This document shows, one piece after another, positions 4,326 to 18,111 of a DNA stretch of 64,000 bases. The notes beneath the pieces are model-generated. The model ran no database searches and was not told the DNA's origin. It saw only the letters and a program-made list of their open reading frames with translations. Origin of the DNA: Rathayibacter sp. VKM Ac-2760 (GTDB lineage: Bacteria > Actinomycetota > Actinomycetes > Actinomycetales > Microbacteriaceae); contig NZ_CP047173.1 in the NCBI RefSeq assembly GCF_009834185.1, positions 1,391,725-1,455,724 of the forward strand, written 5' to 3'. A program made the translations under genes and the position numbers. The stretch's first letter is position 1; every line of letters starts with the position of its first letter.

Positions 4326-5801
4326 TCAGGGCGTCGACGACGAGCGGATGCGCTGGACCATCTCGCTCGTGGAGTGCTCGGAGACGTAGCCCACCGTGGT
4401 GACGGTGCCGCCGTAGGAGCGGACGACCACCGCCTCCGCGAGCATGTCGGGGGCGTAGTCGCCGCCCTTCACGTAGACGTCGGGCCGCACGCGCTCGAGC
4501 AGCGGGATCGGGGTGTCGCCGCTGAACAGGGTGACGTAGTCGACGCAGCCCAGCTCGGCGATCACGCCCGCGCGGTCGCCCTCGGGGTTGATCGGGCGGC
4601 CCTCGCCCTTCAGCCGGCGCACCGAGTCGTCGTCGTTGACCGCGACGACCAGCACGTCGCCGAGCTCGCGCGCCTGGCGGAGGTAGGCGGTGTGGCCGCG
4701 GTGCAGCACGTCGAAGCAGCCGTTGGTGAAGACGATGCGGCGGCCGCGACGGGCCTGCTCGGCGAGCACCTCGACGAGGCCGTCCTCGCCGAGCACCACG
4801 GCGCCGGGGGCGGCGAGCGAGGCGAGCAGATCGTCCGCGGTGCAGACGGAGGTGCCGGGGCGCTGGACGACGACGTCGGCCGCGGCCTGCGCCAGGTCGA
4901 CGGCGGTCGCGAGCGAGCGGCCGGCGGCGAGGGCGAGAGTCGCGGTGGCGGCGAAGGTGTCGCCGGCTCCGGAGGCCTGCTTCTCCTCCGCGGGCTGGGC
5001 GAAGGTGCGGCTGACCGTGCCGTCGGCGTCGAGCGCGGTCGAGCCGTCGCGGTCGAGAGTGACCACGACGTGCCGGGCGCCGGAGCGCTCGCGCAGGCGG
5101 CCAGCCGCGGCGCGGACGGCGGCGGCGCGCTCGGCGCCGCGGCCGAGCGGAGTGCCGAGGAGGCGCTCCGCCTCCTTCGCGTTCGGGGTGACCAGGTCGG
5201 GCGCCGCGAAGGCCCAGTCGGCGAGCTCGTGCGCATCGATCACGAGGAGTCCGGGGCGCTGCACGGCGAGCACGCGCTCGATCGCGGCGCGGAGGATCCC
5301 GGAACCGTAGTCGCAGACGAGCACGGCGTCGGCGCCGTCGGCCGCGCGGACGGCGGCCTCGGCGAGCTCGGTCAGCTCGGGGTCGGACGGGCGGTGCGGA
5401 CCGGAGTCGACGCGCAGCATCACGCTGTCGCCGCCGACGACGCGGGTCTTGATCGTGGTCGAGGCGTCGCTCCGGACGATCGCGCCGGTGTCCAGGCCGG
5501 CGCGCTCGAGCGCGGCGAGGAGGCGGTCGCCCTCGGCGTCGCGGCCGGCGACCCCGACCGTGCGCACCTCGGCGCCGAGCGCCCGCAGGTTCGCCGCGGT
5601 GTTGGCCGCACCGCCGGCGACATCGACGACGTCCTCGAGGCGCAGCACGGGCGCGGGCGCCTCGCGGGTGACCCGCTCGGCCTCGCCGAGCCACCAGGAG
5701 TCGAGGATGAGGTCGCCGACGACGGCGACGACCGGCGGCCGCTCGCGCACGTGCGCGACCAGCGCGCTCGCCCGCTGCAGCGCGGAGCCCTCGAGGCTCA
5801 T
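4326..5801 (-). CDS. hldE: bifunctional D-beta-D-heptose 7-phosphate kinase / D-beta-D-heptose 1-phosphate adenylyltransferase
   Basis: N-terminal pfkB kinase domain (GAGDTF) plus C-terminal cytidylyltransferase domain (FTNGCFDVLHRGH...RRLKG); ATGA overlap with upstream ALDH. Confidence 0.88.
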   Translation of the reverse strand: MSLEGSALQRASALVAHVRERPPVVAVVGDLILDSWWLGEAERVTREAPAPVLRLEDVVDVAGGAANTAANLRALGAEVRTVGVAGRDAEGDRLLAALERAGLDTGAIVRSDASTTIKTRVVGGDSVMLRVDSGPHRPSDPELTELAEAAVRAADGADAVLVCDYGSGILRAAIERVLAVQRPGLLVIDAHELADWAFAAPDLVTPNAKEAERLLGTPLGRGAERAAAVRAAAGRLRERSGARHVVVTLDRDGSTALDADGTVSRTFAQPAEEKQASGAGDTFAATATLALAAGRSLATAVDLAQAAADVVVQRPGTSVCTADDLLASLAAPGAVVLGEDGLVEVLAEQARRGRRIVFTNGCFDVLHRGHTAYLRQARELGDVLVVAVNDDDSVRRLKGEGRPINPEGDRAGVIAELGCVDYVTLFSGDTPIPLLERVRPDVYVKGGDYAPDMLAEAVVVRSYGGTVTTVGYVSEHSTSEMVQRIRSSSTP

Positions 5802-7240
5802 CGCGCGCCGCCGGGCAGGACGGGGAGGCCGAAGTGCACGACCGTGGTCGTGGTCATCTCGTCGAGCAGCTCCGGGCCGTAGCCGAAGCCCGAGCCGCTG
5901 GTGCCGCGCGGCTGCGCGCTGCCGCCGGGGGCGCCGCCGAAGACGCCGTTGATCTTGACGGTGCCGACGGGGAGGGTCGCCGCGGCGCGGTGCGCGTGCT
6001 CCATGTCGGCGGTGAGCACGGTGGCTGCGAGGCCGTAGGGGCCGGCGGCGGCGCGGGTGAGCGCCTCGTCGAAGGAGTCGACGACGAGGATCGGGGCGAC
6101 GGGGCCGAAGGTCTCCTCGGTCATCACCAGCATCTCGTCGGTGCAGTCGGCGAGGACGGTAGCGGGGTAGAAGGTGCCGTCGCCGGGGGTGCCGCCGGTG
6201 AGGGCGCGGGCGCCGTCGGCGACGGCGGCGGAGACGTGCTCGTGCACGGCGTCGCGCATCCGCTCGTCGACCAGGCGGGGGAGGGGGCCGGCGCTCCAGC
6301 GCTCGGCCTCGGCGACCAGGGCGGCGGTGAAGTCCTCGGCGACGTCGCGGTGCAGGTAGATCCGCTCGACGGAGGTGCAGATCTGGCCCGCGTTGGCGAA
6401 GGCGCCGAGGGCGGCCTGCTCGGCGGCCCAGACCGGGTCGACGTCGCGGTCGACGACGAGCGCGTCGTTGCCGCCGTTCTCGAGGATGGTGTGCGCGCCG
6501 GTGACGGCGGCGATGCGGGCGAGGGCGCGGCCGGTGGCGGTCGAGCCGACGTGCGCGAGGACGTCGACGCCCTCGGTGCGGGCGAGGGCGTCGCCCACGG
6601 CGCCGTCGCCCTCGACCAGGGTCAGCACGCCCTCGGGGAGCGCCTCGGCGAGGATCGAGGTGAAGAGCGCGCCGGTGCCGGGGCTGCGCTCGCTGGGCTT
6701 GTGCACGACGACGTCGCCGGAGACGATCGCGGCGCCGAGCATCCCGGCGGCGACGGCGACCGGGTCGTTCCAGGGGGTGAGCGCGAGGACGACTCCGCGC
6801 GGGTGCGGCAGGGCGAGGTCGACGTTCAGGGCGCCGCCGCGCAGGCTCCTGCCGCGGTGCAGCGGGCCGAGCTCGGCGTACTGCAGCAGGGTGTCGACGC
6901 CGGCGCGGACGCCGCCGAGGGCGTCGCCGGCGGGCTTGCCGGTCTCCTCGGTGTTGAGGTCGGCGAGCTCCTGCTCGCGGGCGGCCACAGCGTGGGCGGC
7001 GGCGCGCAGCAGGGCGCCGCGCTCGGCGGGAGCGGTGGCGGCCCAGGTGGGGAAGGCGGCGCGGGCGCGGGAGACGGCGTCGGCGGCGAGGTCGGCGGGG
7101 GCGCCGGTGGTGCCGGCGGCGGGGGTCGCGGTGTCGATGGTCACGGTCACCTCTCGGTCGGAGGCGTCCGCAGGGGTCGCGGACGCTGATGCCCTCGTCC
7201 GATACCCGCGCGGCGGCGGCTCAAACGGATGGCTCGTCAC
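5798..7240 (-). CDS. aldehyde dehydrogenase family protein (start probably internal to this ORF)
   Basis: ALDH motifs (ENGGNDALVV, FANAGQICTSVER, EETFGPV); first in-frame start overlaps a palindromic repeat so true start uncertain. Confidence 0.8.
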   Translation of the reverse strand: MTSHPFEPPPRGYRTRASASATPADASDREVTVTIDTATPAAGTTGAPADLAADAVSRARAAFPTWAATAPAERGALLRAAAHAVAAREQELADLNTEETGKPAGDALGGVRAGVDTLLQYAELGPLHRGRSLRGGALNVDLALPHPRGVVLALTPWNDPVAVAAGMLGAAIVSGDVVVHKPSERSPGTGALFTSILAEALPEGVLTLVEGDGAVGDALARTEGVDVLAHVGSTATGRALARIAAVTGAHTILENGGNDALVVDRDVDPVWAAEQAALGAFANAGQICTSVERIYLHRDVAEDFTAALVAEAERWSAGPLPRLVDERMRDAVHEHVSAAVADGARALTGGTPGDGTFYPATVLADCTDEMLVMTEETFGPVAPILVVDSFDEALTRAAAGPYGLAATVLTADMEHAHRAAATLPVGTVKINGVFGGAPGGSAQPRGTSGSGFGYGPELLDEMTTTTVVHFGLPVLPGGAR

Positions 7241-7305
7241 AACATCAGCTGAGAAGGCGACTCATCGCCGATGAGCGATGAGCCCCCGATTCAGCTGATG
7301 TTCTG
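7238..7305. repeat. palindromic intergenic repeat, family 2 (copy A)
   Basis: CACAACATCAGCTGAGA ... TTCAGCTGATGTTCTG terminal inverted repeats between GNAT-AIRS gene end and ALDH. Confidence 0.8.
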
Positions 7306-7320
7306 CGGCCGCCGAGTGCG

Positions 7321-8706
7321 TCAGGCCGCGCCGAGGCGGGTGACGGCGGAGGTGATCGCCGGGGTGCTCGCGCCGTCGGGCCAGCGGAGGGTGACGCCCT
7401 CGCCGGGGACGACGCGGCCGATGGCGGCGGTGGCGCTGTGCGGGGTGCCCATCCGGGAGGCGCCGGGGCGGTCGGCGGTGAGCATCGCGAAGCCGGGGAA
7501 GCAGGAGAGCCAGTCGGCGAGGCCGGCGGCGGAGGGGCGGGGGATCGCGGCGACCTCGAGCTCGGCACCCGCCCCGGACGCCTCCGCGAGCATGCCGACG
7601 GTGCCGACGAGCCCGGCCATGCTGACGTCCTTCGCGCCGTCGGGAGCGCAGGCGCCGACGCTCGCAGCGAGGGCGCGGAGCACCTCCGGCGGGCGGCCGG
7701 AGGTCGAGTCCCACTGCAGTCCCGCGTAGCCCGGGCGCCACGCGCCGGAGAGGTCGGCGGTCAGGCTCAGCTGGTGTCCGATCGGGGCGCTGCCCGGGAC
7801 CGGGCGCGCGGTGCGGCCGAGGCCGGTGACCGAGAGCGCGGCGGGCACTCCGAGCTGGGTGTGGCCGCCGAGCAGTGGCACGCCCCAGGCCTCGCTGCCG
7901 GCGCGCAGGCCGCGGAGGATGCGGGCGGCGAAGGAGGCGTCCCGCGCGCCGACCGCGTCGAGCAGGCCGACCGGATCGGCGCCCATCGCGGTGAGGTCGT
8001 TGACGTTGACGAGCACCGAGCACCAGCCCGCCCACTCCGGGTCGCGCTCGACCATCGAGGGGACGATCGCGTCGCAGACGGCGACGAGGTCGGAGCCGGG
8101 GACGGGCGCGCCGTCGTCGCCGCGGAAGCCCGGGCCGCCGAGCTGGCCGGCGAACGCGTCGAGCAGCGGACCGAGGGCGGCCTTGGCCCCGCGAGCGAGG
8201 CGGTCGAAGCGGTCGATCGGCCAGCGCATCCGCACGTGCGGGACGCCGGCCACCTCCGCCGTGCCGAGGCGGTCCCAGCCGAGCCGGCGGAAGAGCACCT
8301 CGTTCTGGGTCTGCACCGTCGCCTCGAAGCGGAGCACGCCGCGCGCCTCGGCCTCGGCGCAGGCGGCCCGGACCAGCGCGGCACCGAGGCCGGCGCCGCC
8401 GCGGGCGCTGCGGCGGACGACCAGGCGACTGCCGGTCCACCAGCCCAGATCGTGCTCCAGCGCGGGCGCGATCCGCACGCCACCGAGCACGCCGTCGGCC
8501 GAGCGCGCGACCAGGACGACCGTGCGCGGATCCTCGTCGAGAGTGTCGCGGTCGTCGGCGTCGAAGAGGCCCTGCTCGGCGACGAAGACCTCGCGGCGCA
8601 GCGCCCGGTAGGCGGCCACCTCGGCCGGGTCCGCGACCACGACCACGAAGGCCTCGCGGGCAGCCGGCGCGACCGCGCGGACCCCCTCGAGGATCGAGAG
8701 CTGCAT
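7321..8706 (-). CDS. fusion protein: MSMEG_0567-type GNAT N-acetyltransferase + AIR-synthase-related (sll0787-type) domain; Nit1C-cluster NitE-NitF equivalent
   Basis: in-frame continuous ORF from MQLSILEG...; GNAT core (RIAPALEHD...GAGLGAALV) followed by PurM-like domain; ATGA overlap with upstream radical SAM gene. Confidence 0.75.
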   Translation of the reverse strand: MQLSILEGVRAVAPAAREAFVVVVADPAEVAAYRALRREVFVAEQGLFDADDRDTLDEDPRTVVLVARSADGVLGGVRIAPALEHDLGWWTGSRLVVRRSARGGAGLGAALVRAACAEAEARGVLRFEATVQTQNEVLFRRLGWDRLGTAEVAGVPHVRMRWPIDRFDRLARGAKAALGPLLDAFAGQLGGPGFRGDDGAPVPGSDLVAVCDAIVPSMVERDPEWAGWCSVLVNVNDLTAMGADPVGLLDAVGARDASFAARILRGLRAGSEAWGVPLLGGHTQLGVPAALSVTGLGRTARPVPGSAPIGHQLSLTADLSGAWRPGYAGLQWDSTSGRPPEVLRALAASVGACAPDGAKDVSMAGLVGTVGMLAEASGAGAELEVAAIPRPSAAGLADWLSCFPGFAMLTADRPGASRMGTPHSATAAIGRVVPGEGVTLRWPDGASTPAITSAVTRLGAA

Positions 8707-9851
8707 CAGGCGCCGGCGGTCTTCAGCACGCCGCAGGCGCCGCAGGCCGCGCAGCCCGCCTTCTGGCCGGAGGAGAGCATCCCCGCCGCGATCAGCAGCG
8801 CGGCGACCTGCTCGCTCACCTTCTCCAGCAGCGAGCCGGCCGGCGGCAGGACGTGGTCCACCTCCGTCGCGAGCGTGCCCCTGAGCGGCCGGAACGGCAC
8901 CACGAACGGGTAGATCCCGCGCTCGATCAGCTCGCCGGCGCTCGCGACCAGCTCGTCGGGATCCTCGCCGAGGCCGACGAGCAGGTAGGTCGAGACCTGG
9001 TTGCGGCCGAAGATCCGCACCGCCTCGTCCCAGGCCTCCCAGTACTTCGCGGTCGAGACGCGCGCCTTGCCGGGGGTCCAGCGGCGGCGGATGTCGTCGT
9101 CCATCGACTCGATGTGGATGCCGATCGAGAGGGCGCCGGCGTCCTTCAGCTCCTGCAGCGCGGCGAGGTCCTCCGGCGGCTCGCACTGCACCTGGATCGG
9201 CAGCCCGGGCACGGCCTCGAGCACAGCGCGGACGCAGCGGGCGAGGTGCCGGGCGCCGCGGTCGCGACCCTTCGAGGTGCCGGTGGTCATCACCATCTGG
9301 CGGATGCCGTCCAGCCGGGCGGCTGCCTCGGCGACCTCGGCGAGCTGCGCGGGGGTCTTCACGGCGATGGTGGAGTCGTTGGCGAGCGAGGCCTCGATCG
9401 CGCAGAAGCGGCAGCGCTCGGCCGCGTCGTAGCGCATGCAGGTCTGCACGACGGTGGTGGCGAGGATGTTCCGGCCGTGCAGGCGGGCGATCTTCTCGTA
9501 GGAGACGCCGTCGGCGGTGCTGAGGTCGTAGAAGCGCGGGCGCTTCACCGGCTCCACGTCGAGGCCGATGTCGGCGCCGTCGAGCAGGAGCCGGCCGTTG
9601 GTCACGGCGTAGGGGCTCTTCGGGTTGACGGGGATGGCGGCGCCGAGGCCGCCGAGCATCACGTGGCCGTCGTCGCTCGGGCCGGCGCCCGCCTCGCGGT
9701 GCACGGGGGCGTCGACGCGGATGCCCTGCAGGGCGATGTCGACGCGGGTGCGCAGGGCGGACGGGGCGGCTCCGCAGCCGGAGTCGGCGGGAGCGGTGTC
9801 GGTCGGGGCACTGTCGATGGTGCGGAGGCGGGGCATCTGCAGGTCGGTCAT
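8706..9851 (-). CDS. radical SAM protein, MSMEG_0568 / NitD family
   Basis: CRFCAIE Cys motif (radical SAM CxxxCxxC-like) and C-terminal GCAACGACG tail; position in Nit1C-type cluster. Confidence 0.8.
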   Translation of the reverse strand: MTDLQMPRLRTIDSAPTDTAPADSGCGAAPSALRTRVDIALQGIRVDAPVHREAGAGPSDDGHVMLGGLGAAIPVNPKSPYAVTNGRLLLDGADIGLDVEPVKRPRFYDLSTADGVSYEKIARLHGRNILATTVVQTCMRYDAAERCRFCAIEASLANDSTIAVKTPAQLAEVAEAAARLDGIRQMVMTTGTSKGRDRGARHLARCVRAVLEAVPGLPIQVQCEPPEDLAALQELKDAGALSIGIHIESMDDDIRRRWTPGKARVSTAKYWEAWDEAVRIFGRNQVSTYLLVGLGEDPDELVASAGELIERGIYPFVVPFRPLRGTLATEVDHVLPPAGSLLEKVSEQVAALLIAAGMLSSGQKAGCAACGACGVLKTAGA

Positions 9852-10017
9852 GGTGCTCCTCGGATTCTCGAGTCGAGCGGTGCGCGACGGCGAGTCCGAC
9901 GTCGTGAGCCTCCATTAGGTCAACGCGGTGTTTCGGAGCGATGACATCGGGAACGCGATCGTGTTACATCCGGCGGCCGCCCCGGAGCCCGCCCGGCGTC
10001 ACGCAGGCTTCTTCTGG

Positions 10018-10038
10018 CCGAAACCACTTCGAAACACG
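10018..10038. promoter_or_regulatory. candidate GlnR-type box (GAAAC-n6-GAAAC) in divergent promoter region of the Nit1C cluster
   Basis: sequence CCGAAACCACTTCGAAACACG in the 380-bp divergent intergenic region; resemblance to actinobacterial GlnR half-sites is inference only. Confidence 0.25.
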
Positions 10039-10229
10039 AGCGGCCTTGACTGGACGCAGTCGGGACGAACGCTCCCGACCCGGCCCCGTCGCTCCGCTCG
10101 CCCTCGAACCGCCCCGAGCGACGCCGGCCTCTGCATCACAGCACCGCCCGTTCCACCCGGCACTCCTGTCCCTGCACCACTCGCTCGCGCCCCGCCCGGC
10201 GCGCTCCTCACCGAACCCCGGAGGTTCCC

Positions 10230-10799
10230 ATGACCGACGACCAGACCACCCCCGCCGACGTCAGCACGGACGACCAGGCCGCGATCGAAGAGCAGATCAG
10301 CGCCAACATCGAGAAGTCGCGCGGCGAGATCGCGCACCCCTCGCTGCCCAAGGGCAGCAACCTCTACGGCTCCACCAAGGTCTTCCCCGACTACCAGGCC
10401 GAGCCCGGGCAGTCCTACTTCACCCTCGTGCACGGCATCGCGCACGAGTCCTCGGTCAGCTTCGTCGCGATCCTGCAGGCGACCCGCGCGGCCCGCAAGG
10501 GCTTCGAGTCGGCCGTCTACTTCTACGGCCCCGGCACGATCAACGCGATGGCGACCCGTGGCTTCCCGACGGTCGGCGACTCCGGCTTCCCGGGGGAGCA
10601 GAACATCAACGACGCCCTGAAGACCTTCATCGACGAGGGCAACCGCGTCTTCGTCTGCCGCTTCGGCATGGCGCTGCACGGCCTGCGCGAGGAGGACCTG
10701 ATCGAGGGCACCATCCCCTGCCACCCGCTCGACGTGCAGGACGCCGTCATCCACTACGCCCGCAAGGGCGCCATCATCAACTCGACCTACAACCTCTAG
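10230..10799 (+). CDS. Sll0783 / MSMEG_0572-family nitrogen-starvation-response protein (Nit1C Hp1/NitB-like)
   Basis: 189-aa ORF with good RBS (GGAGG), immediately upstream of nitrilase as in sll0783-sll0784. Confidence 0.6.
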   Translation: MTDDQTTPADVSTDDQAAIEEQISANIEKSRGEIAHPSLPKGSNLYGSTKVFPDYQAEPGQSYFTLVHGIAHESSVSFVAILQATRAARKGFESAVYFYGPGTINAMATRGFPTVGDSGFPGEQNINDALKTFIDEGNRVFVCRFGMALHGLREEDLIEGTIPCHPLDVQDAVIHYARKGAIINSTYNL

Positions 10800-10808
10800 G
10801 CCGCCGCC

Positions 10809-11687
10809 ATGACCGTCGTCGGATCGGTCGCGGCGAACTTCACCCGCGACCTCGATCAGAACTACGCGCTCATCGCCGCGCTGGCCGAGGAGGCCCGGGA
10901 GAAGCGGGTCGAGTTCCTCGTCCTGCCCGAGGCCGCGATCGGCGGCTACCTCTCCTCGCTCGGCAATCACGGCGACACCGTCAAGACGACGACCCGATCG
11001 ATGCCACCGGCGATCGCGCTGGACGGGCCGGAGCTGCGCCGGGTGCAGGAGATCGCGGGCGACCTGCTGGTCGCGATCGGCTTCTGCGAGCTCGACGAGG
11101 ACGGCGAGACCCGCTACAACGCGGCCGCCCTGCTCGACGGCGGGCAGATCTACGGCAGCTACCGCAAGGTGCACCAGCCGCTCGGCGAGCACATGTCCTA
11201 CTCGCCCGGGCCCGGCTACTCGGTCTTCGAGACGCCGGTCGGCCGGGTCGGGCTGCAGATCTGCTACGACAAGGCCTTCCCGGAGGCGGCCCGCTCGATG
11301 GCGCTGGACGGGGCGGAGATCATCGCCTCGCTCTCGGCCTGGCCGGCCGCGCGGACGGCGACGGCGGAGAACCTGCAGGAGGACCGCTGGACCTACCGCT
11401 TCAACCAGTTCGACATCGCGCGGGCCCTGGACAACCAGGTGTTCTGGCTGGCGTCGAACCAGTCCGGCACCTTCGGGTCGCTCCGCTACGTGGGCAACGC
11501 GAAGGTCGTCGATCCGGGCGGCAACATCCTCGCGACGACGCTGCTCGGCTCCGGCATGGCGGTCGCCGACATCGACGTGCGGGGCACCTTCGAGGCGATG
11601 CGCGGCGGGATGTTCCACCTGCGCGACCGCCGGCCGGACGCCTACGACATCGACCGCGTCTGGAGCGGAGGGCTGGTCCATGCCTGA
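10809..11687 (+). CDS. nitrilase, Nit6803/Nit1C family (carbon-nitrogen hydrolase)
   Basis: intact E-K-C triad contexts: LVLPEAAIGGY, YRKVH, LQICYDKAFPE. Confidence 0.85.
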   Translation: MTVVGSVAANFTRDLDQNYALIAALAEEAREKRVEFLVLPEAAIGGYLSSLGNHGDTVKTTTRSMPPAIALDGPELRRVQEIAGDLLVAIGFCELDEDGETRYNAAALLDGGQIYGSYRKVHQPLGEHMSYSPGPGYSVFETPVGRVGLQICYDKAFPEAARSMALDGAEIIASLSAWPAARTATAENLQEDRWTYRFNQFDIARALDNQVFWLASNQSGTFGSLRYVGNAKVVDPGGNILATTLLGSGMAVADIDVRGTFEAMRGGMFHLRDRRPDAYDIDRVWSGGLVHA

Positions 11688-12000
11688 GATGACCTTCCAC
11701 GTCCGCTGGCCGGACGGCGTCGAGGAGCGCTGCTACTCGCCGAGCCTGGTGATGCACGACTACCTCGCCGAGGGCGAGAGCTATCCGCTCGAGGACTTCG
11801 TCGGGCGCTCGACCGAGGCGCTGCGGCTGGCCAGCGAGCGGGTGCGCGCGAAGTTCGGCTTCGCCTGCACCTCCGCGCTGCAGCAGGAGTCGGAGATCGT
11901 CGCGGCCGCCGCGCGCTTCGACGGCGGGCGGGTGCGGGTGCTGGCGATGGATCCGCCGCTGCCGTCCGCTGCTCCGACCGTGCAGGGGACGCGCGCATGA
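11680..12000 (+). CDS. small MSMEG_0570-family protein (Nit1C Hp2/NitG-like)
   Basis: 106-aa ORF overlapping nitrilase stop and flavoprotein start; position conserved in cluster. Confidence 0.55.
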   Translation: MPEMTFHVRWPDGVEERCYSPSLVMHDYLAEGESYPLEDFVGRSTEALRLASERVRAKFGFACTSALQQESEIVAAAARFDGGRVRVLAMDPPLPSAAPTVQGTRA

Positions 12001-13271
12001 CCGCGCTCGAGAACGGCCGGCACCTGCCGGTCGCCGTGATCGGCGCCGGTCAGGCCGGGCTGTCGATCAGCCGCCTGCTCACGGACGAGGGCGTCGAGCA
12101 CCTCGTGATCGAGCGCGACACGATCGCGCACGACTGGCTCGACCGCCGCTGGGACAACTTCACCCTCGTCACGCCGAACTGGCAGTGCCGGCTCCCGGGT
12201 TACCCCTACGACGGCGACGACCCGCACGGCTTCATGACCCGCGACGAGGTGCACGCCTGGGTGCGGCGCTACGCGGAGTCGTTCGACGCTCCGGTCGTGG
12301 AGGACACCGAGGTGCTGCGGCTGCGCGAGGGCGCGGACGGGGCCTTCGAGATCGTCACCTCGCGCGGCACGATCACGGCCGACCAGGTCGTCGTCGCGAC
12401 CGGCGGCTACCACCGGCCGGTGCTGCCGGCGGTCGCGCACCGCATCCCGGACTCGGTCGTGCAGCTGCACTCGGCCGACTACCGCTCGGCCGCGGCGCTG
12501 CCCGAGGGCGGGGTGCTCGTGGTCGGCTCCGGCCAGTCCGGCGCGCAGATCGCGGAGGACCTCTTCCTCGAGGGGCGCGCCGTGCACCTGGCGCTGGGGA
12601 CCGCTCCGAGAGTCGCCCGGTTCTACCGCGGGCGGGACTGCGTCGCGTGGCTCGCCGACATGGGCGTCTACGACGTGCCGGTGCACGCGCAGGTGGGCGG
12701 GCTCTCGAAGCGGGAGTCGACCAATCACTACGTCACCGGGCGCGGCGGCGGGCGGGATATCGACCTGCGGGCGTTCGCGCGCGACGGGATGCACCTCTAC
12801 GGGCGGCTGCAGCAGGTCGACGGTGCGTCGCTCCGGTTCGCGCCGACGGCCGAGGCGTCGCTCGACTACGCGGACTCGGTCGCCGAGTCGATCAAGAACG
12901 ACATCGACGCCTACATCGAGCGCTCGGGCGTGCAGGCGCCGACCGAGGCCCGCTACACCCCGGTCTGGCGGCCGGAGCGCGAGATCGAGGAGCTGGACCT
13001 GGCGGCCGCCGGGATCACGAGCATCGTCTGGGCGGTCGGCTTCCGCGCCGACTACTCCTGGATGCAGATCGGCGTCTTCGACGGCGCCGGGCACCCCACC
13101 CACCGCCGCGGCGCGACCGCGGTGCCGGGGCTGCACTTCCTCGGGCTGCCGTGGCTGAACACCTGGGGCTCCGGCCGCTTCGAGGCGATCGCGCGGGATG
13201 CGGAGCACGTGGTGCAGCAGCTGCTCGGCGGCGCGCGGTTGGACCGGTTCGAGGGCGCCGCGGTACGGTGA
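11997..13271 (+). CDS. FAD/NAD(P)-binding oxidoreductase, MSMEG_0569 / NitH family
   Basis: two dinucleotide-binding motifs (VAVIGAGQAG; VLVVGSGQSGAQIAED), flavin monooxygenase-like. Confidence 0.8.
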   Translation: MTALENGRHLPVAVIGAGQAGLSISRLLTDEGVEHLVIERDTIAHDWLDRRWDNFTLVTPNWQCRLPGYPYDGDDPHGFMTRDEVHAWVRRYAESFDAPVVEDTEVLRLREGADGAFEIVTSRGTITADQVVVATGGYHRPVLPAVAHRIPDSVVQLHSADYRSAAALPEGGVLVVGSGQSGAQIAEDLFLEGRAVHLALGTAPRVARFYRGRDCVAWLADMGVYDVPVHAQVGGLSKRESTNHYVTGRGGGRDIDLRAFARDGMHLYGRLQQVDGASLRFAPTAEASLDYADSVAESIKNDIDAYIERSGVQAPTEARYTPVWRPEREIEELDLAAAGITSIVWAVGFRADYSWMQIGVFDGAGHPTHRRGATAVPGLHFLGLPWLNTWGSGRFEAIARDAEHVVQQLLGGARLDRFEGAAVR

Positions 13272-13352
13272 CGGCCGCGCGCTCGCCCCGGGCGCGCCTC
13301 CGGCCGCTCGTCCGGCCGCTCGTCCGGCCGGGCGGGGCGAGAGAAGAGGACC

Positions 13353-14207
13353 ATGTCGAGCATCACCCTGGCCGCGGTCGCGGCGCACTTCGGCCGCGAT
13401 CTCGAGCGCACCCTCGTCAAGCTGCCCGGCATGATCGCGAGCGCGCAGGAGCGCGGGATCGACCTGCTGGTGCTGCCCGACGCGACGCTCGGCGGCTACC
13501 TGCTCGACATGCACCACCCCGGCCCGGACGACCTGCCGCAGGCCGTGGAGGTCGACGGGCCGGAGGTCGCCGCGGTCGCGGCGATGGCGGGGGACACGAC
13601 GGTGTGCTTCGGCATCGCCGAGCGCGCGCTCGAGGGCGGCGAGGTCCGCCGCTACAACTCGGCGGTCTGCGTGCAGGGCGGCCGGGTGATCGGGACGCAC
13701 CGGAAGGTGCACCTGCCGCTGGGCGAATCGGAGGCGTACGCGGCGGGCGACGCGTTCCGCTCCTTCGACTCCGCGGTCGGGCGGATCGGGATGATGATCG
13801 ACTTCGACAAGACCTTCCCCGAGTCGGCGCGCTCGCTGGCGCTGGACGGGGCGGAGATCCTCTGCTGCCTCAGCGCCTGGCCGGCCAGCGTCACCGACCG
13901 GTCCGACCGGATCCGCAACGACCGGCAGGCGCACCTGTTCGACCTCTACGACTGCGCGCGCGCCGCCGAGAACCAGGTCTACCTGGTGTCCTCGAACCAG
14001 ACAGGCGTGCTCGGCGGGCTGCGCTTCCTCGGGCAGGCGAAGGTCGTCGATCCGGCCGGCGAGATCATCGCGAAGACGTGGGCGAAGGGCGGGCTCGCGG
14101 TCGCGACGGACGACGTGTCCGCGTCCGTGGCGCGAGCCCGGCGGAGCATGGACCACCTGCGGGACCGCGCCGTGCACGCGTACCACGGGGCGGCGCCCAC
14201 CGGCTGA
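13353..14207 (+). CDS. carbon-nitrogen hydrolase family protein, paralog of the nitrilase with degenerate catalytic triad (D-K-D)
   Basis: aligns to upstream nitrilase but has LVLPDATLGGY (Glu->Asp) and MIDFDKTFPE (Cys->Asp); Lys motif HRKVH retained. Confidence 0.8.
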   Translation: MSSITLAAVAAHFGRDLERTLVKLPGMIASAQERGIDLLVLPDATLGGYLLDMHHPGPDDLPQAVEVDGPEVAAVAAMAGDTTVCFGIAERALEGGEVRRYNSAVCVQGGRVIGTHRKVHLPLGESEAYAAGDAFRSFDSAVGRIGMMIDFDKTFPESARSLALDGAEILCCLSAWPASVTDRSDRIRNDRQAHLFDLYDCARAAENQVYLVSSNQTGVLGGLRFLGQAKVVDPAGEIIAKTWAKGGLAVATDDVSASVARARRSMDHLRDRAVHAYHGAAPTG

Positions 14208-14278
14208 CCCGGCCGGCCTGCCCGCCCGGCTGCCCGGCCCCGCTGCCCACCCGCCCGCTCGATCGAGAAGGAGACCCC

Positions 14279-15385
14279 GTGCGGATCGCGCAGCTGACCT
14301 ACTCCACCAGGCCCCGCGGCGGCGTGGTGCACACGCTCGCGCTCTCGGAGGCGCTGGCCCGGCGCGGGCACGAGGTGACCGTCTGGACGCTCGGCCGCGG
14401 CGGTGACTCCGCCTTCTTCCGCGCGGTCGATCCCGCCGTGGCGGTCCGGGTCGTGCCGTTCGCGGCGCGAGAGGGCGAGAGCGTCGGCGACCGGATCGTC
14501 CGCTCCCTCGATGCGCTCGCGGCCGGGCTCGCGGCGACGGGCGGGACGGAGTGGGACGTCGTGCACGCGCAGGACTGCATCTCGGCCAACGCCGCGCTCC
14601 GTGCCGGCGCCGCCGGACCGGGCGGGCTGCTGCGCACCGTGCACCACCTCGATGAGTTCACGACGCCGGCGCTGATCGACTGCCACGAGCGCGCGCTCAC
14701 CGGGCCGGCCGCGCTGCTCGCGGTCTCGGCGTCGGTCGCGGGCGACGTCGCCGCAGGCTGGGGCCGCGAGCCGACCGTGATCCCGAACGGCGTCGACGCC
14801 GCGCGCTTCGCCGCCGCCGCGGGCGGCCAGGGGGTCGCCGAGTGGCGGGCCGAGCTCGGCCGCTACGTGCTCGCGCTCGGCGGCATCGAGCCGCGGAAGG
14901 GCAGCGTCGACCTGCTGGCGGCGTTCGCGGGACTCGCGCCCGGCACGGTGCTCGTCTTCGGCGGCGGGGAGACGCTGTTCGACTACCGGGGCTATCGCGA
15001 GGAGTTCGAGCGCCGGGCGGCCGAGCTGGGGGTGACGCCGGTCGTGCTCGGCACGGTGCCCGAGGAGCGGCTCGCAGCGCTCGTCGCCGGCGCGGCGGTG
15101 CTCGGCTTCGTCTCGACCAAGGAGGGCTTCGGCCTCGCGGCGATGGAGGCGCTCGCCGCGGGGGTGCCGGTCGTCGCGCGCGATCTGCCGGTGCTGCGCG
15201 AGGTGTTCGGCGGGACGGTGGCGTACGGGAGCGACGTGGCGGGCATCCGGGCGGCGCTGGCCGCGGCGCTCGCGGGGGAGGCGCCGGACCCGCGGCCCGG
15301 GCGGGAGCTGGCCTTCTCGCACTCCTGGGACGACGTCGCCGCGAGCCACGAGGCCCTGTACCGGTCGCACGCGAGCGCCGCCTGA
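14279..15385 (+). CDS. GT4 glycosyltransferase, MSMEG_0565 family
   Basis: GTG start after GAGAAGGAGA RBS; GT4 E-x7-E region (EGFGLAAMEALAAGVPVV). Confidence 0.8.
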   Translation: MRIAQLTYSTRPRGGVVHTLALSEALARRGHEVTVWTLGRGGDSAFFRAVDPAVAVRVVPFAAREGESVGDRIVRSLDALAAGLAATGGTEWDVVHAQDCISANAALRAGAAGPGGLLRTVHHLDEFTTPALIDCHERALTGPAALLAVSASVAGDVAAGWGREPTVIPNGVDAARFAAAAGGQGVAEWRAELGRYVLALGGIEPRKGSVDLLAAFAGLAPGTVLVFGGGETLFDYRGYREEFERRAAELGVTPVVLGTVPEERLAALVAGAAVLGFVSTKEGFGLAAMEALAAGVPVVARDLPVLREVFGGTVAYGSDVAGIRAALAAALAGEAPDPRPGRELAFSHSWDDVAASHEALYRSHASAA

Positions 15386-16800
15386 TGCGCCGCTCGTTCT
15401 CGCGCTGCTTCTCGGCGCTCGCCGCGGAGGATCCCGAGCGGGTCGTGGTCGTCGCGGACGACGCGACGCTCACCGCGGGCGCCCTGGACCGGGCCTCGAA
15501 CCGGCTCGCGCGCGCCTACGCGGCGCGGGGCGTCACTCCGGACTCGCTCGTCGCGGTCTCGCTGCCGAACTCGGCCGAGCTGGTGCTGGCCTGCGCCGCG
15601 ATCTGGAAGGCGGGCGCGACGCCGCAGCCGCTCTCGCGCGGGCTCTCGGCGCGGGAGCTCGCCGAGGTCGGCGCGCTCGGGCGGCCCACGCTGAGCGTCG
15701 GCGTCGAGCTGGAGGGCGTGCCGTTCGTCCCCGCCGGCTTCGAGCCCGACCCGGCGCTGCCGGACGACGAGCTGCCGGATCTCCGGGCGGCGTCGTGGAA
15801 GGCGCCCGCCTCCTCCGGCAGCACCGGTCGGCCGAAGATCGTTCTCGCGGCGGCTCCCGCGCTGATGGACCCGACGCAGCCGGTCGCGGCCTTCCTGCCG
15901 CGGGAGGGGGTGCAGCTCGTGGCCGGGCCGCTCACCCACTCCGCGACCTTCACCTACGCGTTCCGCGGGCTCCTGACCGGGCAGCGGCTGGTGATCCTGC
16001 CGCGCTTCGACGAGGCGCGGGTGCTCGCCGCGATCGCGGCGCACCGGGTGACCTGGGCGCTGCTGGTGCCGACGATGATCCACCGGCTGCTGCGGACGCC
16101 CGCGCACCGGGACGCGGACGTGTCGTCGCTCGAGACGGTGCTGCACCTGGGCTCGCCGTGCCCGCCCGCGGACAAGCGCGCGCTGATCGACTGGGTCGGG
16201 GCGGAGAAGGTGGTCGAGGTCTACGCGGGCAGCGAGTCGAACGGGCTGACGATGATCCGCGGCGACGAGTGGCTGGAGCGGCCCGGCAGTGTCGGCCGGC
16301 CGATCGGCGGCACGGAGCTTCGGGTGCTGCGCCCGGACGGGACGGAGTGCGCGGTCGGTGAGCCGGGGCGGGTCTGGCTGAAGCGCGGCGAGCCGACCTA
16401 CCGCTACCTCGGCGGGGAGTCGAAGCGGACGGAGGACGGCTGGGACACGCTCGGCGACGTCGGCTCGGTCGACGCCGACGGCTACCTGACCGTGCTCGAC
16501 CGGGCCGACGACCTGATCCTGCGCGGCGGGGTGAACGTCTACCCGGCGGAGATCGAGCGGGTGCTGGAGGAGCACCCGGCGGTGCGCGGGGCGGTCGCGT
16601 ACGGCGTCCCGGATGCGGAGCTGGGCCAGGCGATCGAGGCGGTGGTCGACATCGCGGACGCCGCAGTGACGGCGGAGGAGCTGCTCGCCTTCGCGCGCGA
16701 GCACCTCGGCTCACGCGCGCCGCGGGCGCTGCGGCTCCAGCGCTCGCCGCTGCGCGACGACGCGGGCAAGGTGCGGCGCGCGGCGCTCGCGGACGACTGA
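15385..16800 (+). CDS. AMP-dependent synthetase/ligase (adenylate-forming enzyme)
   Basis: ATGA overlap with GT; motifs SSGSTGRPK, YAGSE, GWDTLGDVG, ILRGGVNVYP. Confidence 0.85.
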   Translation: MRRSFSRCFSALAAEDPERVVVVADDATLTAGALDRASNRLARAYAARGVTPDSLVAVSLPNSAELVLACAAIWKAGATPQPLSRGLSARELAEVGALGRPTLSVGVELEGVPFVPAGFEPDPALPDDELPDLRAASWKAPASSGSTGRPKIVLAAAPALMDPTQPVAAFLPREGVQLVAGPLTHSATFTYAFRGLLTGQRLVILPRFDEARVLAAIAAHRVTWALLVPTMIHRLLRTPAHRDADVSSLETVLHLGSPCPPADKRALIDWVGAEKVVEVYAGSESNGLTMIRGDEWLERPGSVGRPIGGTELRVLRPDGTECAVGEPGRVWLKRGEPTYRYLGGESKRTEDGWDTLGDVGSVDADGYLTVLDRADDLILRGGVNVYPAEIERVLEEHPAVRGAVAYGVPDAELGQAIEAVVDIADAAVTAEELLAFAREHLGSRAPRALRLQRSPLRDDAGKVRRAALADD

Positions 16801-16848
16801 GCAGCCGCGCAGGCGGGGCCCGCGAGTGGCCGCCGCCCGCAGGTCGCC

Positions 16849-16919
16849 GCACAACATCAGCTGAGAGGTGGGTCCCTCCCCCCACAGCGGAGGCCCTCCC
16901 TTCTCAGCTGATGTTGTGC
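16849..16919. repeat. palindromic intergenic repeat, family 2 (copy B)
   Basis: GCACAACATCAGCTGAGA ... TCTCAGCTGATGTTGTGC. Confidence 0.85.
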
Positions 16920-17028: not shown

Positions 17029-18111
17029 GTGGTCGCCATCGCCCCGCTCCGAGACCGCTTCGACGGAGTCGAGAGGATCGCCGTGCTCCGCGGTGGCGGA
17101 CTCGGCGATCTGCTCTTCGCGCTGCCCGCCGTGGACGCGCTCGCCGCCGCGTACCCGGGCGCCGAGATCACCCTGCTCGGCACTCCGGCGCACCGCGTGC
17201 TGATCGAGGGCAGCGACGCGCCCGTGGCGGGCGTCGAGGTGCTGCCGGTGGCGCAGGGTGTGCGCGACGGCGACGGGGAGGACGAGCGGATCGTCGAGGA
17301 CTTCACGGCCCGGATGCGCGCCCGGCGCTTCGACCTCGCGGTGCAGCTGCACGGCGGCGGGCGCTTCTCCAACCCGTTCCTGCTACGGCTCGGCGCGCGG
17401 CACACGATCGGCACGCGCACCGACGACGCGGCGGACCTGGAGCGCACCATCCCCTACGTCTATTACCAGCACGAGATGCTGCGCGCGCTCGAGGTCGTCG
17501 GGCTCGCGGGCGCGCCGGCGGTGCGGCTGGAGCCGTCGCTGCAGGTCGACCCGGAGCGCCGCGACCGGCTCGCCGCGGTGCTGCCCGACGGCGGACCGCT
17601 GGTGCTGATCCACCCGGGGGCGACGGACGTGCGGCGGCGCTGGGCGAGCGCGTCCTTCGCCGAGGTGGCGCGGGCGCTGCTGGCGGACGGGGCGCGCGTG
17701 CTCGTGGTCGGCGACGCCTCCGACGTGCCCGCCGCCGACGCGATCGTCGCGGGCGCGCCGGGCGCCGTGTCGTGGGCCGGCGCGGTCGAGCTGCCGGACC
17801 TCGCTCCGCTGCTCTCGCTCGCCGACCTCGTGCTCGGCAACGACAGCGGACCGCGGCACCTCGCAGCGGCGGTCGGGGCGCCCACGGTCGGCGTCTTCTG
17901 GGTGGGCAACGCGATCAACGCCCAGCCCCTCGGCCGCCAGCGCCACCGCGTCCAGCTGAGCTGGACCACCCGCTGCCCGGTCTGCGGCATCGACGTCACG
18001 CAGGTCGGCTGGACCGCCCCGCGCTGCGAGCACGAGCTGTCCTTCGTCGACGACGTCCCCGTCTCCCGCGTCCTGGAGGACGCCCGAGCCGTCCTCGCCT
18101 CGACCAGCTGA
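17029..18111 (+). CDS. glycosyltransferase family 9 (heptosyltransferase-like) 1
   Basis: GTG start after GAGAGGAA; C-terminal GNDSGPRHLAAAVGAPTVGVF motif typical of GT9. Confidence 0.8.
   Translation: MVAIAPLRDRFDGVERIAVLRGGGLGDLLFALPAVDALAAAYPGAEITLLGTPAHRVLIEGSDAPVAGVEVLPVAQGVRDGDGEDERIVEDFTARMRARRFDLAVQLHGGGRFSNPFLLRLGARHTIGTRTDDAADLERTIPYVYYQHEMLRALEVVGLAGAPAVRLEPSLQVDPERRDRLAAVLPDGGPLVLIHPGATDVRRRWASASFAEVARALLADGARVLVVGDASDVPAADAIVAGAPGAVSWAGAVELPDLAPLLSLADLVLGNDSGPRHLAAAVGAPTVGVFWVGNAINAQPLGRQRHRVQLSWTTRCPVCGIDVTQVGWTAPRCEHELSFVDDVPVSRVLEDARAVLASTS

Follow-up and report, generated by a model that had tools for sequence, protein, structure and literature searches.

The 64,000-nucleotide stretch of Rathayibacter sp. 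VKM Ac-2760 DNA analysed here (the window) raises the question of whether its positions 7321-16800 hold a complete Nit1C cluster that is prolonged by its neighbours into a longer pathway, or a unit with boundaries of its own. We consider it highly probable that this region forms a self-contained cassette of nine genes, of the actinobacterial MSMEG_0565-0572 type (known as 'gpr', for GlnR-dependent peroxide resistance), related to Nit1C and arranged as two divergent operons, for which we infer co-regulation and a common pathway. The strands and extents of its genes were assigned from third-position GC content (Table 1) and delimit eight core genes (encoding Hp1, CN-hydrolase A, Hp2, a flavoprotein, a radical SAM protein, a GNAT-AIRS fusion, CN-hydrolase B and a GT4 glycosyltransferase), a set that is retained across 80 actinobacterial loci, with a BaiB-like AMP-ligase as the ninth.

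Table 1. Features of the cassette and its surroundings (positions within the window)
Feature	Position	Strand	Evidence or remark
DUF2795 gene	4069-4260	-	Pfam; flanking backbone operon (whole operon 4069..7150), not cassette
hldE	4326-5801	-	Pfam; flanking backbone operon, not cassette
ALDH	5798-7150	-	Pfam; flanking backbone operon, not cassette
Left palindrome copy (CACAACATCAGCTGAGA...TCTCAGCTGATGTT)	7237..7306	.	RNA fold -57.3 kcal/mol, z -8.1
GNAT + AIR-synthase-like fusion, MSMEG_0567 family, 461 aa	7321..8706	-	Second gene of minus operon
Radical SAM protein (rSAM), MSMEG_0568 family, 381 aa	8706..9851	-	TIGR04043 496 bits (cut-off 304); first gene of minus operon
Divergent control region, 378 bp, common to both operons	9852..10229	.	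Conserved blocks aligned with ten related loci
Candidate GlnR-type box toward rSAM operon (GTCATCGCTCCGAAACA)	9929..9945	-	Consensus match; 78 nt upstream of rSAM start
Candidate GlnR-type box toward Hp1 operon (GAAACCACTTCGAAACA)	10020..10036	+	Consensus match
Hp1, MSMEG_0572/Sll0783 family, DsrE/YchN-like, 189 aa	10230..10799	+	TIGR04044 242 bits (cut-off 110)
CN-hydrolase A, MSMEG_0571 orthologue, 292 aa	10809..11687	+	Pfam CN_hydrolase 148 bits
Hp2, MSMEG_0570 family, 106 aa	11680..12000	+	TIGR04042 126 bits (cut-off 80); C63 invariant
Flavin-dependent oxidoreductase, MSMEG_0569 family, 424 aa	11997..13271	+	TIGR04046 635 bits (cut-off 498)
CN-hydrolase B, MSMEG_0566 orthologue, 284 aa	13353..14207	+	Pfam CN_hydrolase 127 bits
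GT4 glycosyltransferase, MSMEG_0565 family, 368 aa	14279..15385	+	TIGR04047 404 bits (cut-off 260)
AMP-binding (ANL) ligase, BaiB/FadD4-like, 471 aa	15385..16800	+	Pfam AMP-binding 169 bits + AMP-binding_C
Right palindrome copy, same element	16849..16919	.	RNA fold -83.1 kcal/mol, z -5.7
GT9 heptosyltransferase, not cassette	17029..18111	+	Pfam Glyco_transf_9

Six cassette proteins exceed the curated cut-offs of MSMEG_0565-0572 family models (seven NCBIfam models in all: TIGR04042, 04043, 04044, 04045, 04046, 04047 and 04050), with which both the Pfam assignments and the NCBI protein names in the source genome agree, and the proposal of the earlier note that the cluster is of this type and related to Nit1C is thereby upheld. 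Its further claim that every Nit1C component is present did not hold: in the profile search of the cassette proteins the cut-offs of TIGR04049 (sll0787; 170.6 vs 321.3) and TIGR04048 (Nit1C nitrilase; 39.9 and 32.3 bits for the two CN-hydrolases vs 502.6) were missed, so that, strictly speaking, the cassette is no Nit1C cluster. The minus-strand operon had been described as radical SAM plus fused GNAT-AIRS, which TIGR04043, TIGR04050 (437 bits, cut-off 312), TIGR04045 (116 bits, cut-off 68) and Pfam (AIRS, AIRS_C and GNAT in the fusion, named 'MSMEG_0567/sll0787 family protein' by NCBI) corroborate. The radical SAM protein has conserved cysteines at C138-x8-C147-x2-C150, C206, C223 and, C-terminally, C367-x2-C370-x2-C373, and among solved structures bears a weak likeness (24.5 bits) to lipoyl synthase. 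On the plus strand, Hp1 carries an invariant single cysteine (C143, 80/80 sequences) and owes its DsrE assignment to a Pfam score barely over the cut-off (23.9 vs 22.7 bits), while a search of solved structures with the confident AlphaFold model of Hp2 (pLDDT 90.8) found no structural relative. The flavoprotein resembles class B flavoprotein monooxygenases (Pfam Pyr_redox_3, Lys_Orn_oxgnase and FMO-like; closest solved structures bacterial flavin monooxygenases), and the glycosyltransferase (Pfam Glyco_transf_4 and Glycos_transf_1) has PimA and MshA as its closest solved structures. The 4-nt overlaps previously reported are not general: inside the cassette only the Hp2/flavoprotein junction overlaps by 4 nt (ATGA; the ALDH/hldE junction outside it also does so by ATGA), Hp2 overlaps CN-hydrolase A by 8 nt, the stop codons of the rSAM and GT4 genes overlap the starts of the GNAT-AIRS and ligase genes by 1 nt (TGATG), and the three remaining junctions are gaps of 9, 81 and 71 nt.

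The two CN-hydrolases are paralogues (45% identity) that differ at the catalytic positions. CN-hydrolase A, which shares 82% identity with its M. moriokaense counterpart in the 0571 position, had been called a nitrilase with an intact E-K-C triad; the triad is indeed intact (E41-K120-C152, plus E159) and invariant in 78/78 sequences, but identity as a branch-1 or Nit1C nitrilase is ruled out by its TIGR04048 score and its likeness to amidases and carbamoylases (closest solved relative N-carbamoylputrescine amidohydrolase, 78 bits, vs about 30 bits for true nitrilases). We therefore predict an enzyme of the amidase/carbamoylase kind. CN-hydrolase B, regarded in the earlier note as foreign to the canonical cluster, turned out to be a core gene, with orthologues in 74 of the 80 loci and 61% identity to the gene in the MSMEG_0566 position of a mycobacterial cluster of canonical order. 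It shows D43-K118-D150 where Glu-Lys-Cys is expected (D150 aligns to the catalytic Cys146, and D43 to the Glu, of structure 3ivz), and Asp always occupies the Cys position in its wider clade. As Asp-Lys-Asp is found in all 74 orthologues, and in the mycobacterial orthologue too, CN-hydrolase B is probably no thiol amidase.

Within the spacer that separates the operons we identified two conserved candidate GlnR-type boxes, one per operon, which are new in this analysis. The pattern Gn2A[C/T]-n6-GAAACA has only two matches in the 64 kb (0.11 expected), both in the spacer and on opposite strands; the box consensus derives from PMC3662644, and the Rathayibacter boxes are matches to it. The rSAM-facing box lies within a four-site array (9930-9967) and the Hp1-facing one within the array GTCAC-n6-TTCTT-n6-GAAAC-n6-GAAAC (9998-10035), followed by a conserved TTGACT (10046-10051). 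Both boxes are conserved in ten related loci (L001-L010), and a similar GAAAC-n6-GAAAC element stands upstream of Hp1 in Mycolicibacterium moriokaense. An Rfam search of the spacer matched no family, and searches for a sigma-70-like promoter and a canonical terminator found neither. In mycobacteria, MSMEG_0572 has a GlnR ChIP peak and a 263-fold expression change between wild type and glnR deletion under nitrogen limitation (PMC3662644), and the gpr operon is induced >500-fold, with peroxide-resistance and NADPH phenotypes (PMC6039565). By analogy with the mycobacterial operon, GlnR would turn on both Rathayibacter operons jointly at nitrogen depletion.

At its outer edges each operon terminates in a copy of one palindrome, an observation new in this analysis. 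The left copy (15 nt past the GNAT-AIRS stop and 87 nt ahead of the likely ALDH start) shows that the repeat reported at this place is real, and a degenerate version of it is conserved in the close relative L001, from which the right copy (49 nt past the ligase stop and 110 nt ahead of the likely GT9 start) is absent; a third copy lies at 37570-37645. As hairpins, the two would insulate the cassette from flanking genes. The right copy is homologous to a single copy upstream of GT9 in R. rathayi, which sits between two gene starts and therefore is no terminator there; the palindrome may function as an operator or else represent a dispersed repeat.

The ALDH, hldE and DUF2795 genes do lie beyond the left palindrome, as the earlier note stated, and they follow the GNAT-AIRS gene on its own strand at a distance of just 80-170 nt; the cluster glycosyltransferase could, moreover, in principle take a nucleotide sugar. 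That these three genes continue the cluster into a longer pathway is nevertheless hardly credible: a synteny comparison, with the outcome named in advance as refuting, showed them to be unrelated flanking genes in close relatives. In R. rathayi the ALDH-hldE-(GT2)-DUF2795 operon adjoins the same GT9 gene with no cassette between (an empty site, to whose backbone positions 16847 to 18196 are 80% identical at the DNA level). The cassette sits in a heptose-glycan locus, between GT9 and ALDH-hldE genes that adjoin each other in R. rathayi, and hldE goes with the GmhA-like SIS protein, the GmhB-like HAD protein and the three GT9 genes across the cassette (the first of which opens the part running to about 26.3 kb), while a strong hairpin parts the GNAT-AIRS and ALDH units. 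Quite different genes flank the cassette in R. oskolensis, strain VKM Ac-2854 and Clavibacter, the flanks differ in loci L005, L009 and L011, the ALDH/hldE/DUF2795 operon is not beside it in L005-L019, and ALDH or hldE occurs within 10 kb of it in 0/70 loci outside the closest clade. The cassette is mobile, as the empty site, the differing flanks and a plasmid copy in Humibacter bear out. Of the longer pathway only the AMP-ligase stood the comparison, being a true accessory addition that keeps company with the cluster. The ligase gene is cluster-linked in 26 of the 80 loci in four gene orders, and in L087 and L088; the gene orders number five in all, with an internal position in Mycolicibacterium stellerae and one at the cluster end in Promicromonospora, and the gene recurs in many Micrococcales and one mycobacterium. 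A mere passenger that happens to sit at the cluster end in one lineage might be missing, as it is, from 54/80 loci (chiefly Rhodococcus and Nocardia), occur alone (a 62% identical homologue in an Amycolatopsis metagenome-assembled genome) and decay, as in the Humibacter plasmid copy of the cassette; this reading is very unlikely, given that the ligase is kept over five gene orders, is retained when the cassette moved to unrelated sites, is translationally coupled to GT4 here and has conserved adenylation motifs (P-loop SSGSTGrPK; closest solved relative bile-acid-CoA ligase 4lgc, 224 bits).

For the Rathayibacter cassette, the pathway and its steps are proposals only. The products would form one pathway acting on a small molecule, which probably includes glycosylation (GT4), ATP-dependent activation (AIRS domain, ligase), GNAT acetyl transfer, flavin-dependent oxygenation and a radical step, possibly one involving sulfur (rSAM, which is LipA-like and has an auxiliary cluster, and the DsrE-like Hp1 with its single Cys). 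C-N cleavage would fall to CN-hydrolase A alone, as the one enzyme competent for it (an amidase or carbamoylase), and CN-hydrolase B would be a non-thiol partner or scaffold, with the ligase adding a carboxylate-activation step in this lineage. Catabolic nitrogen scavenging, in which an amide or carbamoyl compound is broken down and CN-hydrolase A frees ammonium with no metabolite built, would suit its carbamoylase likeness, the GlnR regulons rich in scavenging hydrolases (MSMEG_0571 listed among them; PMC3662644) and the greater nitrogen need of the gpr mutant for biofilms (PMC6039565); we regard it as unlikely, however, in view of the GT4, GNAT, AIRS-like ATP-dependent domain and adenylating ligase (typical of synthesis), a CN-hydrolase B without nucleophile and a conserved block that includes no transporter gene. 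Decidedly unlikely is cyanide/nitrile assimilation as in Pseudomonas/Synechocystis Nit1C, whereby CN-hydrolase A would cleave a nitrile (e.g. a cyanohydrin) and free ammonium during nitrogen shortage. Six proteins do belong to families common to nitB and nitD-H (PMC7815647, PMC1199592), control by nitrogen limitation is common to all versions (PMC6039565, PMC3662644, PMC7815647) and the M. moriokaense cluster adjoins nitrile hydratase and cobalt-transporter genes, but the profile and structural scores of CN-hydrolase A set out above speak against it, as do the confinement of nitrile hydrolysis to branch 1 of the CN-hydrolase superfamily (PMC7815647) and a mycobacterial phenotype of peroxide resistance and NADPH balance rather than cyanide use (PMC6039565).

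Relative to Microbacterium, in which the genes form a single operon, the leading pair (rSAM and GNAT-AIRS) is inverted here, and there are therefore two divergent operons around one intergenic region, just as had been read from the window at the outset. The Rathayibacter sp. VKM Ac-2760 version is a copy of an already known nitrogen-starvation cluster.

Owing to the G+C content of the window (~74%), which makes raw ORF lists unreliable, genes were called on the basis of third-position GC content (see table). The calls place nine genes in two divergent operons on either side of a 378-bp spacer, which agrees with the split arrangement proposed in the earlier note, and the cluster does not form a single co-directional operon. 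The called radical SAM (rSAM) protein is 100% identical to a deposited Rathayibacter sp. VKM Ac-2760 protein, and an exact-sequence look-up of ten gene calls found 8 of them (7 in the cluster plus hldE) to equal deposited proteins of the genome; the two without a match there, an aldehyde dehydrogenase (ALDH) and a GT9 gene that flank the cluster, are calls that were later shortened. Comparison with R. rathayi yielded corrected starts for ALDH (GTG 7150), GT9 (GTG 17029) and a DUF2795 gene (ATG 4260); an ALDH start at 7240, abutting a palindrome, was ruled out, as the R. rathayi orthologue favours GTG 7150. The NCBI annotation gives MSMEG-family names to 6 of the 9 cluster proteins (the name of rSAM being taken from a homologue search), a superfamily name only to both CN-hydrolases and a generic name to the ligase, and the flavoprotein was identified by its NCBIfam model only. 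The 4-nt overlaps ascribed to neighbouring genes exist (as ATGA) between Hp2 and the flavoprotein and, beyond the cluster, between ALDH and hldE, and the other junctions differ: rSAM/GNAT-AIRS and GT4/ligase overlap by 1 base (TGATG), CN-hydrolase A/Hp2 by 8 nt, and the remaining three are gaps of 9, 81 and 71 nt. The longer spacers of the plus operon (13272-13352 and 14208-14278) are G+C-rich, one with a direct repeat (CGGCCGCTCGTC twice), and internal promoters or processing sites might lie in them.

Genes of the cluster in window coordinates (called from third-position GC content), with NCBIfam scores and curated cut-offs in bits
Feature	Position	Strand	Model	Score	Cut-off	Outcome
GNAT-AIRS fusion, 461 aa	7321-8706	minus				
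GNAT domain of the fusion			TIGR04045	116.4	68.45	passes
AIRS-like domain of the fusion			TIGR04050	437.4	312.2	passes
Radical SAM (rSAM), 381 aa	8706-9851	minus	TIGR04043 (MSMEG_0568)	496.5	303.7	passes
Spacer between divergent operons, 378 bp	9852-10229					
Hp1	10230-10799	plus	TIGR04044 (MSMEG_0572/Sll0783)	242	109.85	passes
CN-hydrolase A	10809-11687	plus				
Hp2	11680-12000	plus	TIGR04042 (MSMEG_0570)	126.1	79.85	passes
Flavoprotein	11997-13271	plus	TIGR04046 (MSMEG_0569 flavin oxidoreductase)	634.7	498.35	passes
CN-hydrolase B	13353-14207	plus				
GT4	14279-15385	plus	TIGR04047 (MSMEG_0565 glycosyltransferase)	403.8	259.85	passes
AMP-ligase	15385-16800	plus				

We scored the proteins with NCBIfam models against the curated cut-offs, and Pfam agrees with the assignments that passed. 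The family membership claimed previously was upheld for TIGR04042-04047 and fell for TIGR04048 (Nit6803/sll0784 nitrilase), whose cut-off is 502.6 bits and on which the CN-hydrolases score 39.9 and 32.3, and for TIGR04049 (sll0787; 170.6 bits against 321.3). Homologues of Hp1, radical SAM, Hp2 and the flavoprotein do lie in one cluster, as in Nit1C sensu Podar 2005 / Jones 2018, and the family name of TIGR04044 spans both MSMEG_0572 and Sll0783. Nevertheless, because TIGR04048 and TIGR04049 fail and the Nit1C definition is built around subfamily-1 nitrilases (PMC1199592; PMC7815647), the cluster is of the actinobacterial MSMEG type, outside strict Nit1C. As no family-specific model exists for either CN-hydrolase, their orthology (A to MSMEG_0571, B to MSMEG_0566) was judged by reciprocal best matches.

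By alignment, the protein taken for the Nit1C nitrilase, CN-hydrolase A, has the intact Glu-Lys-Cys triad reported for it (E41, K120, C152), and these residues together with E159 are invariant in 78 of 78 sequences. Its identity as a nitrilase did not survive: besides the TIGR04048 result, a PDB search returned N-carbamoylputrescine amidohydrolase and N-carbamoyl-D-amino-acid amidohydrolases as its nearest solved relatives, with true nitrilases and cyanide dihydratases at only ~30 bits. CN-hydrolase B, 45% identical to A, carries D43-K118-D150 at the triad positions in 74 of 74 orthologues, and in the HMMER alignment D150 stands opposite the catalytic Cys146 of Pyrococcus 3ivz and D43 opposite its Glu. 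Searching 1.84 billion cluster representatives showed that its closest clade invariably has Asp in place of Cys, also in more distant members in which the other two sites vary (D, G, H or A for Glu; sometimes Q or R for Lys); some distant relatives, located on short contigs, read A-Q-D or H-K-D across the triad. This residue pattern fits a loss of the thiol mechanism, and we read CN-hydrolase B as a putative partner of A without catalytic activity, or else as an enzyme of different chemistry. The published label of MSMEG_0566, ‘aliphatic amidase’ (PMC6039565), is unsupported.

The rSAM has a variant C-x8-C-x2-C motif, and its conserved C-terminal C-x2-C-x2-C (C367/C370/C373) is suggestive of an auxiliary cluster; among solved structures lipoyl synthase alone is related to it, and weakly. 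Hp1 contains a single invariant cysteine and gives a borderline DsrE match, with no match in a PDB sequence search and an unusable single-sequence structure prediction (pLDDT 34). Hp2 likewise has a single invariant cysteine, within a confidently predicted fold without solved relative. The ligase matches Pfam AMP-binding (168.9 bits) and AMP-binding_C (37 bits), keeps the P-loop SSGSTGrPK in 26 orthologues, and has its best matches in the bile-acid-CoA ligase 4lgc (224 bits) and the NCBIfam model for BaiB (NF038344), which it fails (272.2 bits against a cut-off of 650).

To place these genes in context, one genome scan with the rSAM protein retrieved 80 actinobacterial loci including 10-kb flanks, which were searched by tblastn with 18 window proteins. 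Hp1, CN-hydrolase A, Hp2, the flavoprotein, rSAM, GNAT-AIRS, CN-hydrolase B and GT4 are near-universal across them, with A in 77/80 and B in 74/80 loci (some of the loci lacking B being short or ending near the cluster). In Mycolicibacterium moriokaense the gene order is the published M. smegmatis order, including two CN-hydrolases, of which the first is the reciprocal best match of A (82%) and the second that of B (61%). Since published accounts also have two CN-hydrolase genes, MSMEG_0571 and MSMEG_0566 (PMC6039565, PMC3662644), CN-hydrolase B belongs to the core and is not the extra gene it had been taken for. The AMP-ligase, the other proposed addition, is indeed a true accessory gene, present in 26/80 loci: ten with the gene order of the window, nine of Clavibacter type, three rSAM-first and four Hp1-first. 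It lies within the cluster of M. stellerae (between the flavoprotein and rSAM genes), stands at the cluster end in Promicromonospora and is missing from the Rhodococcus and Nocardia loci, and one stand-alone homologue was found in a metagenome-assembled Amycolatopsis genome. A divergent layout is found in 20/80 loci and is of two kinds (window type and Clavibacter type), which appear to have two origins. We also observed that CN-hydrolase A shares 82% identity with its Mycolicibacterium orthologue and 57-60% with those of Rhodococcus and Nocardia, which suggests a possible cluster transfer between Micrococcales and mycobacteria. In M. moriokaense, nitrile hydratase alpha/beta and CbtA/CbtB cobalt-transporter genes adjoin the cluster in convergent orientation (14950-17650 of its locus, L085), which could reflect chance or a link to nitrile metabolism.

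The pathway had also been thought to continue through ALDH, hldE and DUF2795, a proposal contradicted by the flanks. Only two loci, those of the closest Rathayibacter (L001 and L004), have these genes and GT9 next to the cluster; in other relatives it lies between DUF1801, YCII and a sigma factor at one end and nucleosidase and LuxS at the other (R. oskolensis), or beside helicase and DarT (strain VKM Ac-2854), or beside a short-chain dehydrogenase and a cyclase-like protein (Clavibacter). Decisively, R. rathayi has the backbone of the window (aminotransferase, FAA hydrolase, RecQ, DUF2795, hldE, ALDH, then GT9) with GT9 and the ALDH operon as divergent neighbours and no cluster between them, and its DNA homology to the window ends at 16847 on one side and within ALDH on the other. 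The backbone (4326-5801 and 17029-26272) is a heptose-glycan locus in a Gram-positive bacterium, interrupted by the cluster; it comprises hldE, three GT9 heptosyltransferase-like genes, GmhA-like SIS, GmhB-like HAD, a second cytidylyltransferase and GT4/GT1 genes. Because R. rathayi keeps this backbone without it, the nine genes are a 9.5-kb cassette set within the heptose-glycan locus. A cluster copy on the 121-kb plasmid of Humibacter sp. BT305 (L086, 5960-15076; rSAM first, its ligase gene called as a C-terminal fragment only), adjoining resolvase, Fic and VbhA genes, is consistent with a mobile unit. The R. rathayi empty site (L081) additionally holds a 208-aa ORF without Pfam family between GT9 and ALDH (7969-8595), as well as a GT2 gene (11470-12339) that separates hldE from DUF2795; the window lacks both.

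The palindrome noted after the minus operon is real (7237-7306) and has a twin at 16849-16919 with a common outer stem (CACAACATCAGCTGAGA/TCTCAGCTGATGTTGTG); each is placed directly past the last gene of an operon, and their RNA folds reach -57.3 kcal/mol (z -8.1) for the first and -83.1 kcal/mol (z -5.7) for its twin. The two copies bracket the cassette exactly, and since R. rathayi has one copy at its empty site, between the divergent GT9 and ALDH-side starts, they can be seen as that element standing on both cassette sides in the window. We considered whether they are unique insertion scars and rejected this: a third, diverged copy lies at 37570-37645 (with a partial match near 46076-46095), a second palindrome family is likewise dispersed, and L001, which is closely related and shares the insertion, lacks the copy on the right. 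Because of the third copy and of L001, the palindrome (a family of ~70-bp units with outer stem CACAAC[A/G]TCAGCTGAG) is a dispersed element and not a clean target duplication. It may serve as terminator or insulator, as an operator for the flanking genes (considered because TCAGCTGA is itself palindromic), or be a mobile repeat. The second, unrelated family (CGCGAGATGCCACTTGTG...CACAAGTGGCATCTCGCG) is intergenic, at 2007-2074, 3999-4067, 18134-18196 and 58531-58593, and occurs also at the corresponding R. rathayi places. Elsewhere in the window, a 92-bp unit containing short inverted repeats is repeated 9.2 times in tandem at 27354-28198 (87% matches), between sigma-factor and glutamyl-tRNA synthetase genes, and a related stretch of 74-89 bp occurs once in R. 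rathayi (L081, 4604-4692).

With regard to control, the M. smegmatis GlnR consensus Gn2A[C/T]-n6-GnAACA (PMC3662644) has two matches in the 64-kb window against 0.11 expected, both of them in the spacer on opposite strands (9929-9945 toward rSAM, 10020-10036 toward Hp1). Each belongs to an array of four sites spaced by 6 nt, of which it is the strong end; both boxes are kept in 10/10 window-type loci amid variable surrounding sequence, a conserved TTGACT follows the box at 10020-10036, and M. moriokaense has a related GAAAC-n6-GAAAC element upstream of its Hp1 gene. [quoted passage not shown] We infer a candidate joint GlnR control of both operons. Consensus scans of 7100-17100 returned no sigma-70-like promoter and a single, chance-level terminator match inside the flavoprotein gene; an Rfam scan of the entire window gave one tRNA only, without a match in the spacer, and no sigma-54-activator domain (NitA) was found among the neighbours annotated at window 1-31 kb.

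Taken together, these observations allow a working scheme in which GlnR would switch on both operons upon nitrogen starvation, the hairpins would end their transcription, and the cassette proteins would act on one small molecule through glycosyl transfer, ATP-dependent activation, acetyl transfer, a radical step (possibly sulfur-related), flavin oxygenation and one amide-type hydrolysis by CN-hydrolase A, the ligase being a presumed added carboxylate-activation step in the lineage carrying it. Such a combination of enzymes resembles a synthetic more than a degradative pathway, and in our analysis seems to fit the peroxide-resistance and NADPH phenotypes (PMC6039565) better than cyanide assimilation. 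A more specific proposal, to which we give only a slim chance, is that the gpr/Nit1C-type core makes a sulfur-containing, glycosylated, N-acetylated small redox metabolite under nitrogen starvation, following a mycothiol/bacillithiol-like logic. GT4 would then act as MshA/BshA, CN-hydrolase A (as an amidase) as MshB and GNAT as MshD; the AIRS domain would perform the ATP-dependent ligation, joined by the extra ANL ligase in the present lineage; sulfur would come from the single-Cys, DsrE-like Hp1 and be inserted by the LipA-like rSAM with its C-terminal CxxCxxC auxiliary cluster, and CN-hydrolase B, with its Asp-Lys-Asp, would hold the intermediate for A as a partner that does no catalysis. 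If true, this mycothiol-like scheme would account for the phenotypes (peroxide resistance, NADPH) of mutants in mycobacteria and cyanobacteria.

Known since 2005 and present in thousands of genomes, this cluster family ranks among the loci that nitrogen starvation induces most strongly in mycobacteria and cyanobacteria. It is already covered by Nit1C (2005), the TIGRFAM models and gpr (2018), and the present instance, named in GenBank, is otherwise unsurprising. In the searchable literature we found neither a solved product or mechanism for Nit1C / MSMEG / sll0783-0787 clusters nor the divergent layouts, the recurrent ligase, the paired GlnR boxes or the triad-less second hydrolase. What the comparison offers is a functional unit of eight genes and not seven, an actinobacterial ‘nitrilase’ that is probably an amidase-type enzyme paired with a paralogue without thiol nucleophile, and a dedicated adenylating ligase as part of the pathway in many Micrococcales, all of which leave fewer options to feed or seek in knockouts and in-vitro assays. 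Furthermore, it counsels caution in annotation, as ‘amidase’ for MSMEG_0566-type proteins and ‘cyanide-assimilation’ for such clusters are unsupported.

In comparison with known enzymes, both CN-hydrolases have the fold of their superfamily (full-length alignment to N-carbamoylputrescine amidase, N-carbamoyl-D-amino-acid amidohydrolase and 3ivz), but only A shares the Glu-Lys-Cys triad and second Glu, B having Asp at the Glu and Cys positions. The ligase keeps the adenylation motifs of BaiB / FadD4-type acyl-CoA synthetases (ANL superfamily); because its scores are far below curated cut-offs (272 vs 650), it is, on sequence grounds, a subfamily distinct from BaiB, and its genomic partner is a gpr-type cluster instead of a bile-acid operon.

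With Nit1C (nitB-H / sll0783-0787 of Pseudomonas, Burkholderia and Synechocystis) the cassette shares homologues of Hp1 (NitB), radical SAM (NitD), GNAT (NitE), the AIRS-like protein (NitF), Hp2 (NitG) and the flavoprotein (NitH), and both cluster types are tied to nitrogen limitation; some Nit1C clusters moreover carry a glycosyltransferase as an optional extra (PMC1199592). In contrast to Nit1C, the subfamily-1 nitrilase (TIGR04048) is missing here and replaced by an amidase-like CN-hydrolase and a triad-less paralogue, GNAT and AIRS are fused and not separate genes (sll0786, sll0787), and the candidate control is GlnR in place of the sigma-54 activator NitA. The closest counterpart is the gpr operon of M. 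smegmatis (MSMEG_0565-0572; PMC6039565, PMC3662644), with which all eight families are common, including both CN-hydrolases and the GNAT-AIRS fusion; GlnR-type boxes lie upstream in both (here as consensus matches), and both behave as a unit that passes from genome to genome. The present cluster differs from it in having two divergent operons, each with its own GlnR-type box, instead of one, in its ninth gene, the AMP-ligase, and in the position of rSAM and GNAT-AIRS, which are upstream and inverted here but lie between the flavoprotein and CN-hydrolase B in gpr.
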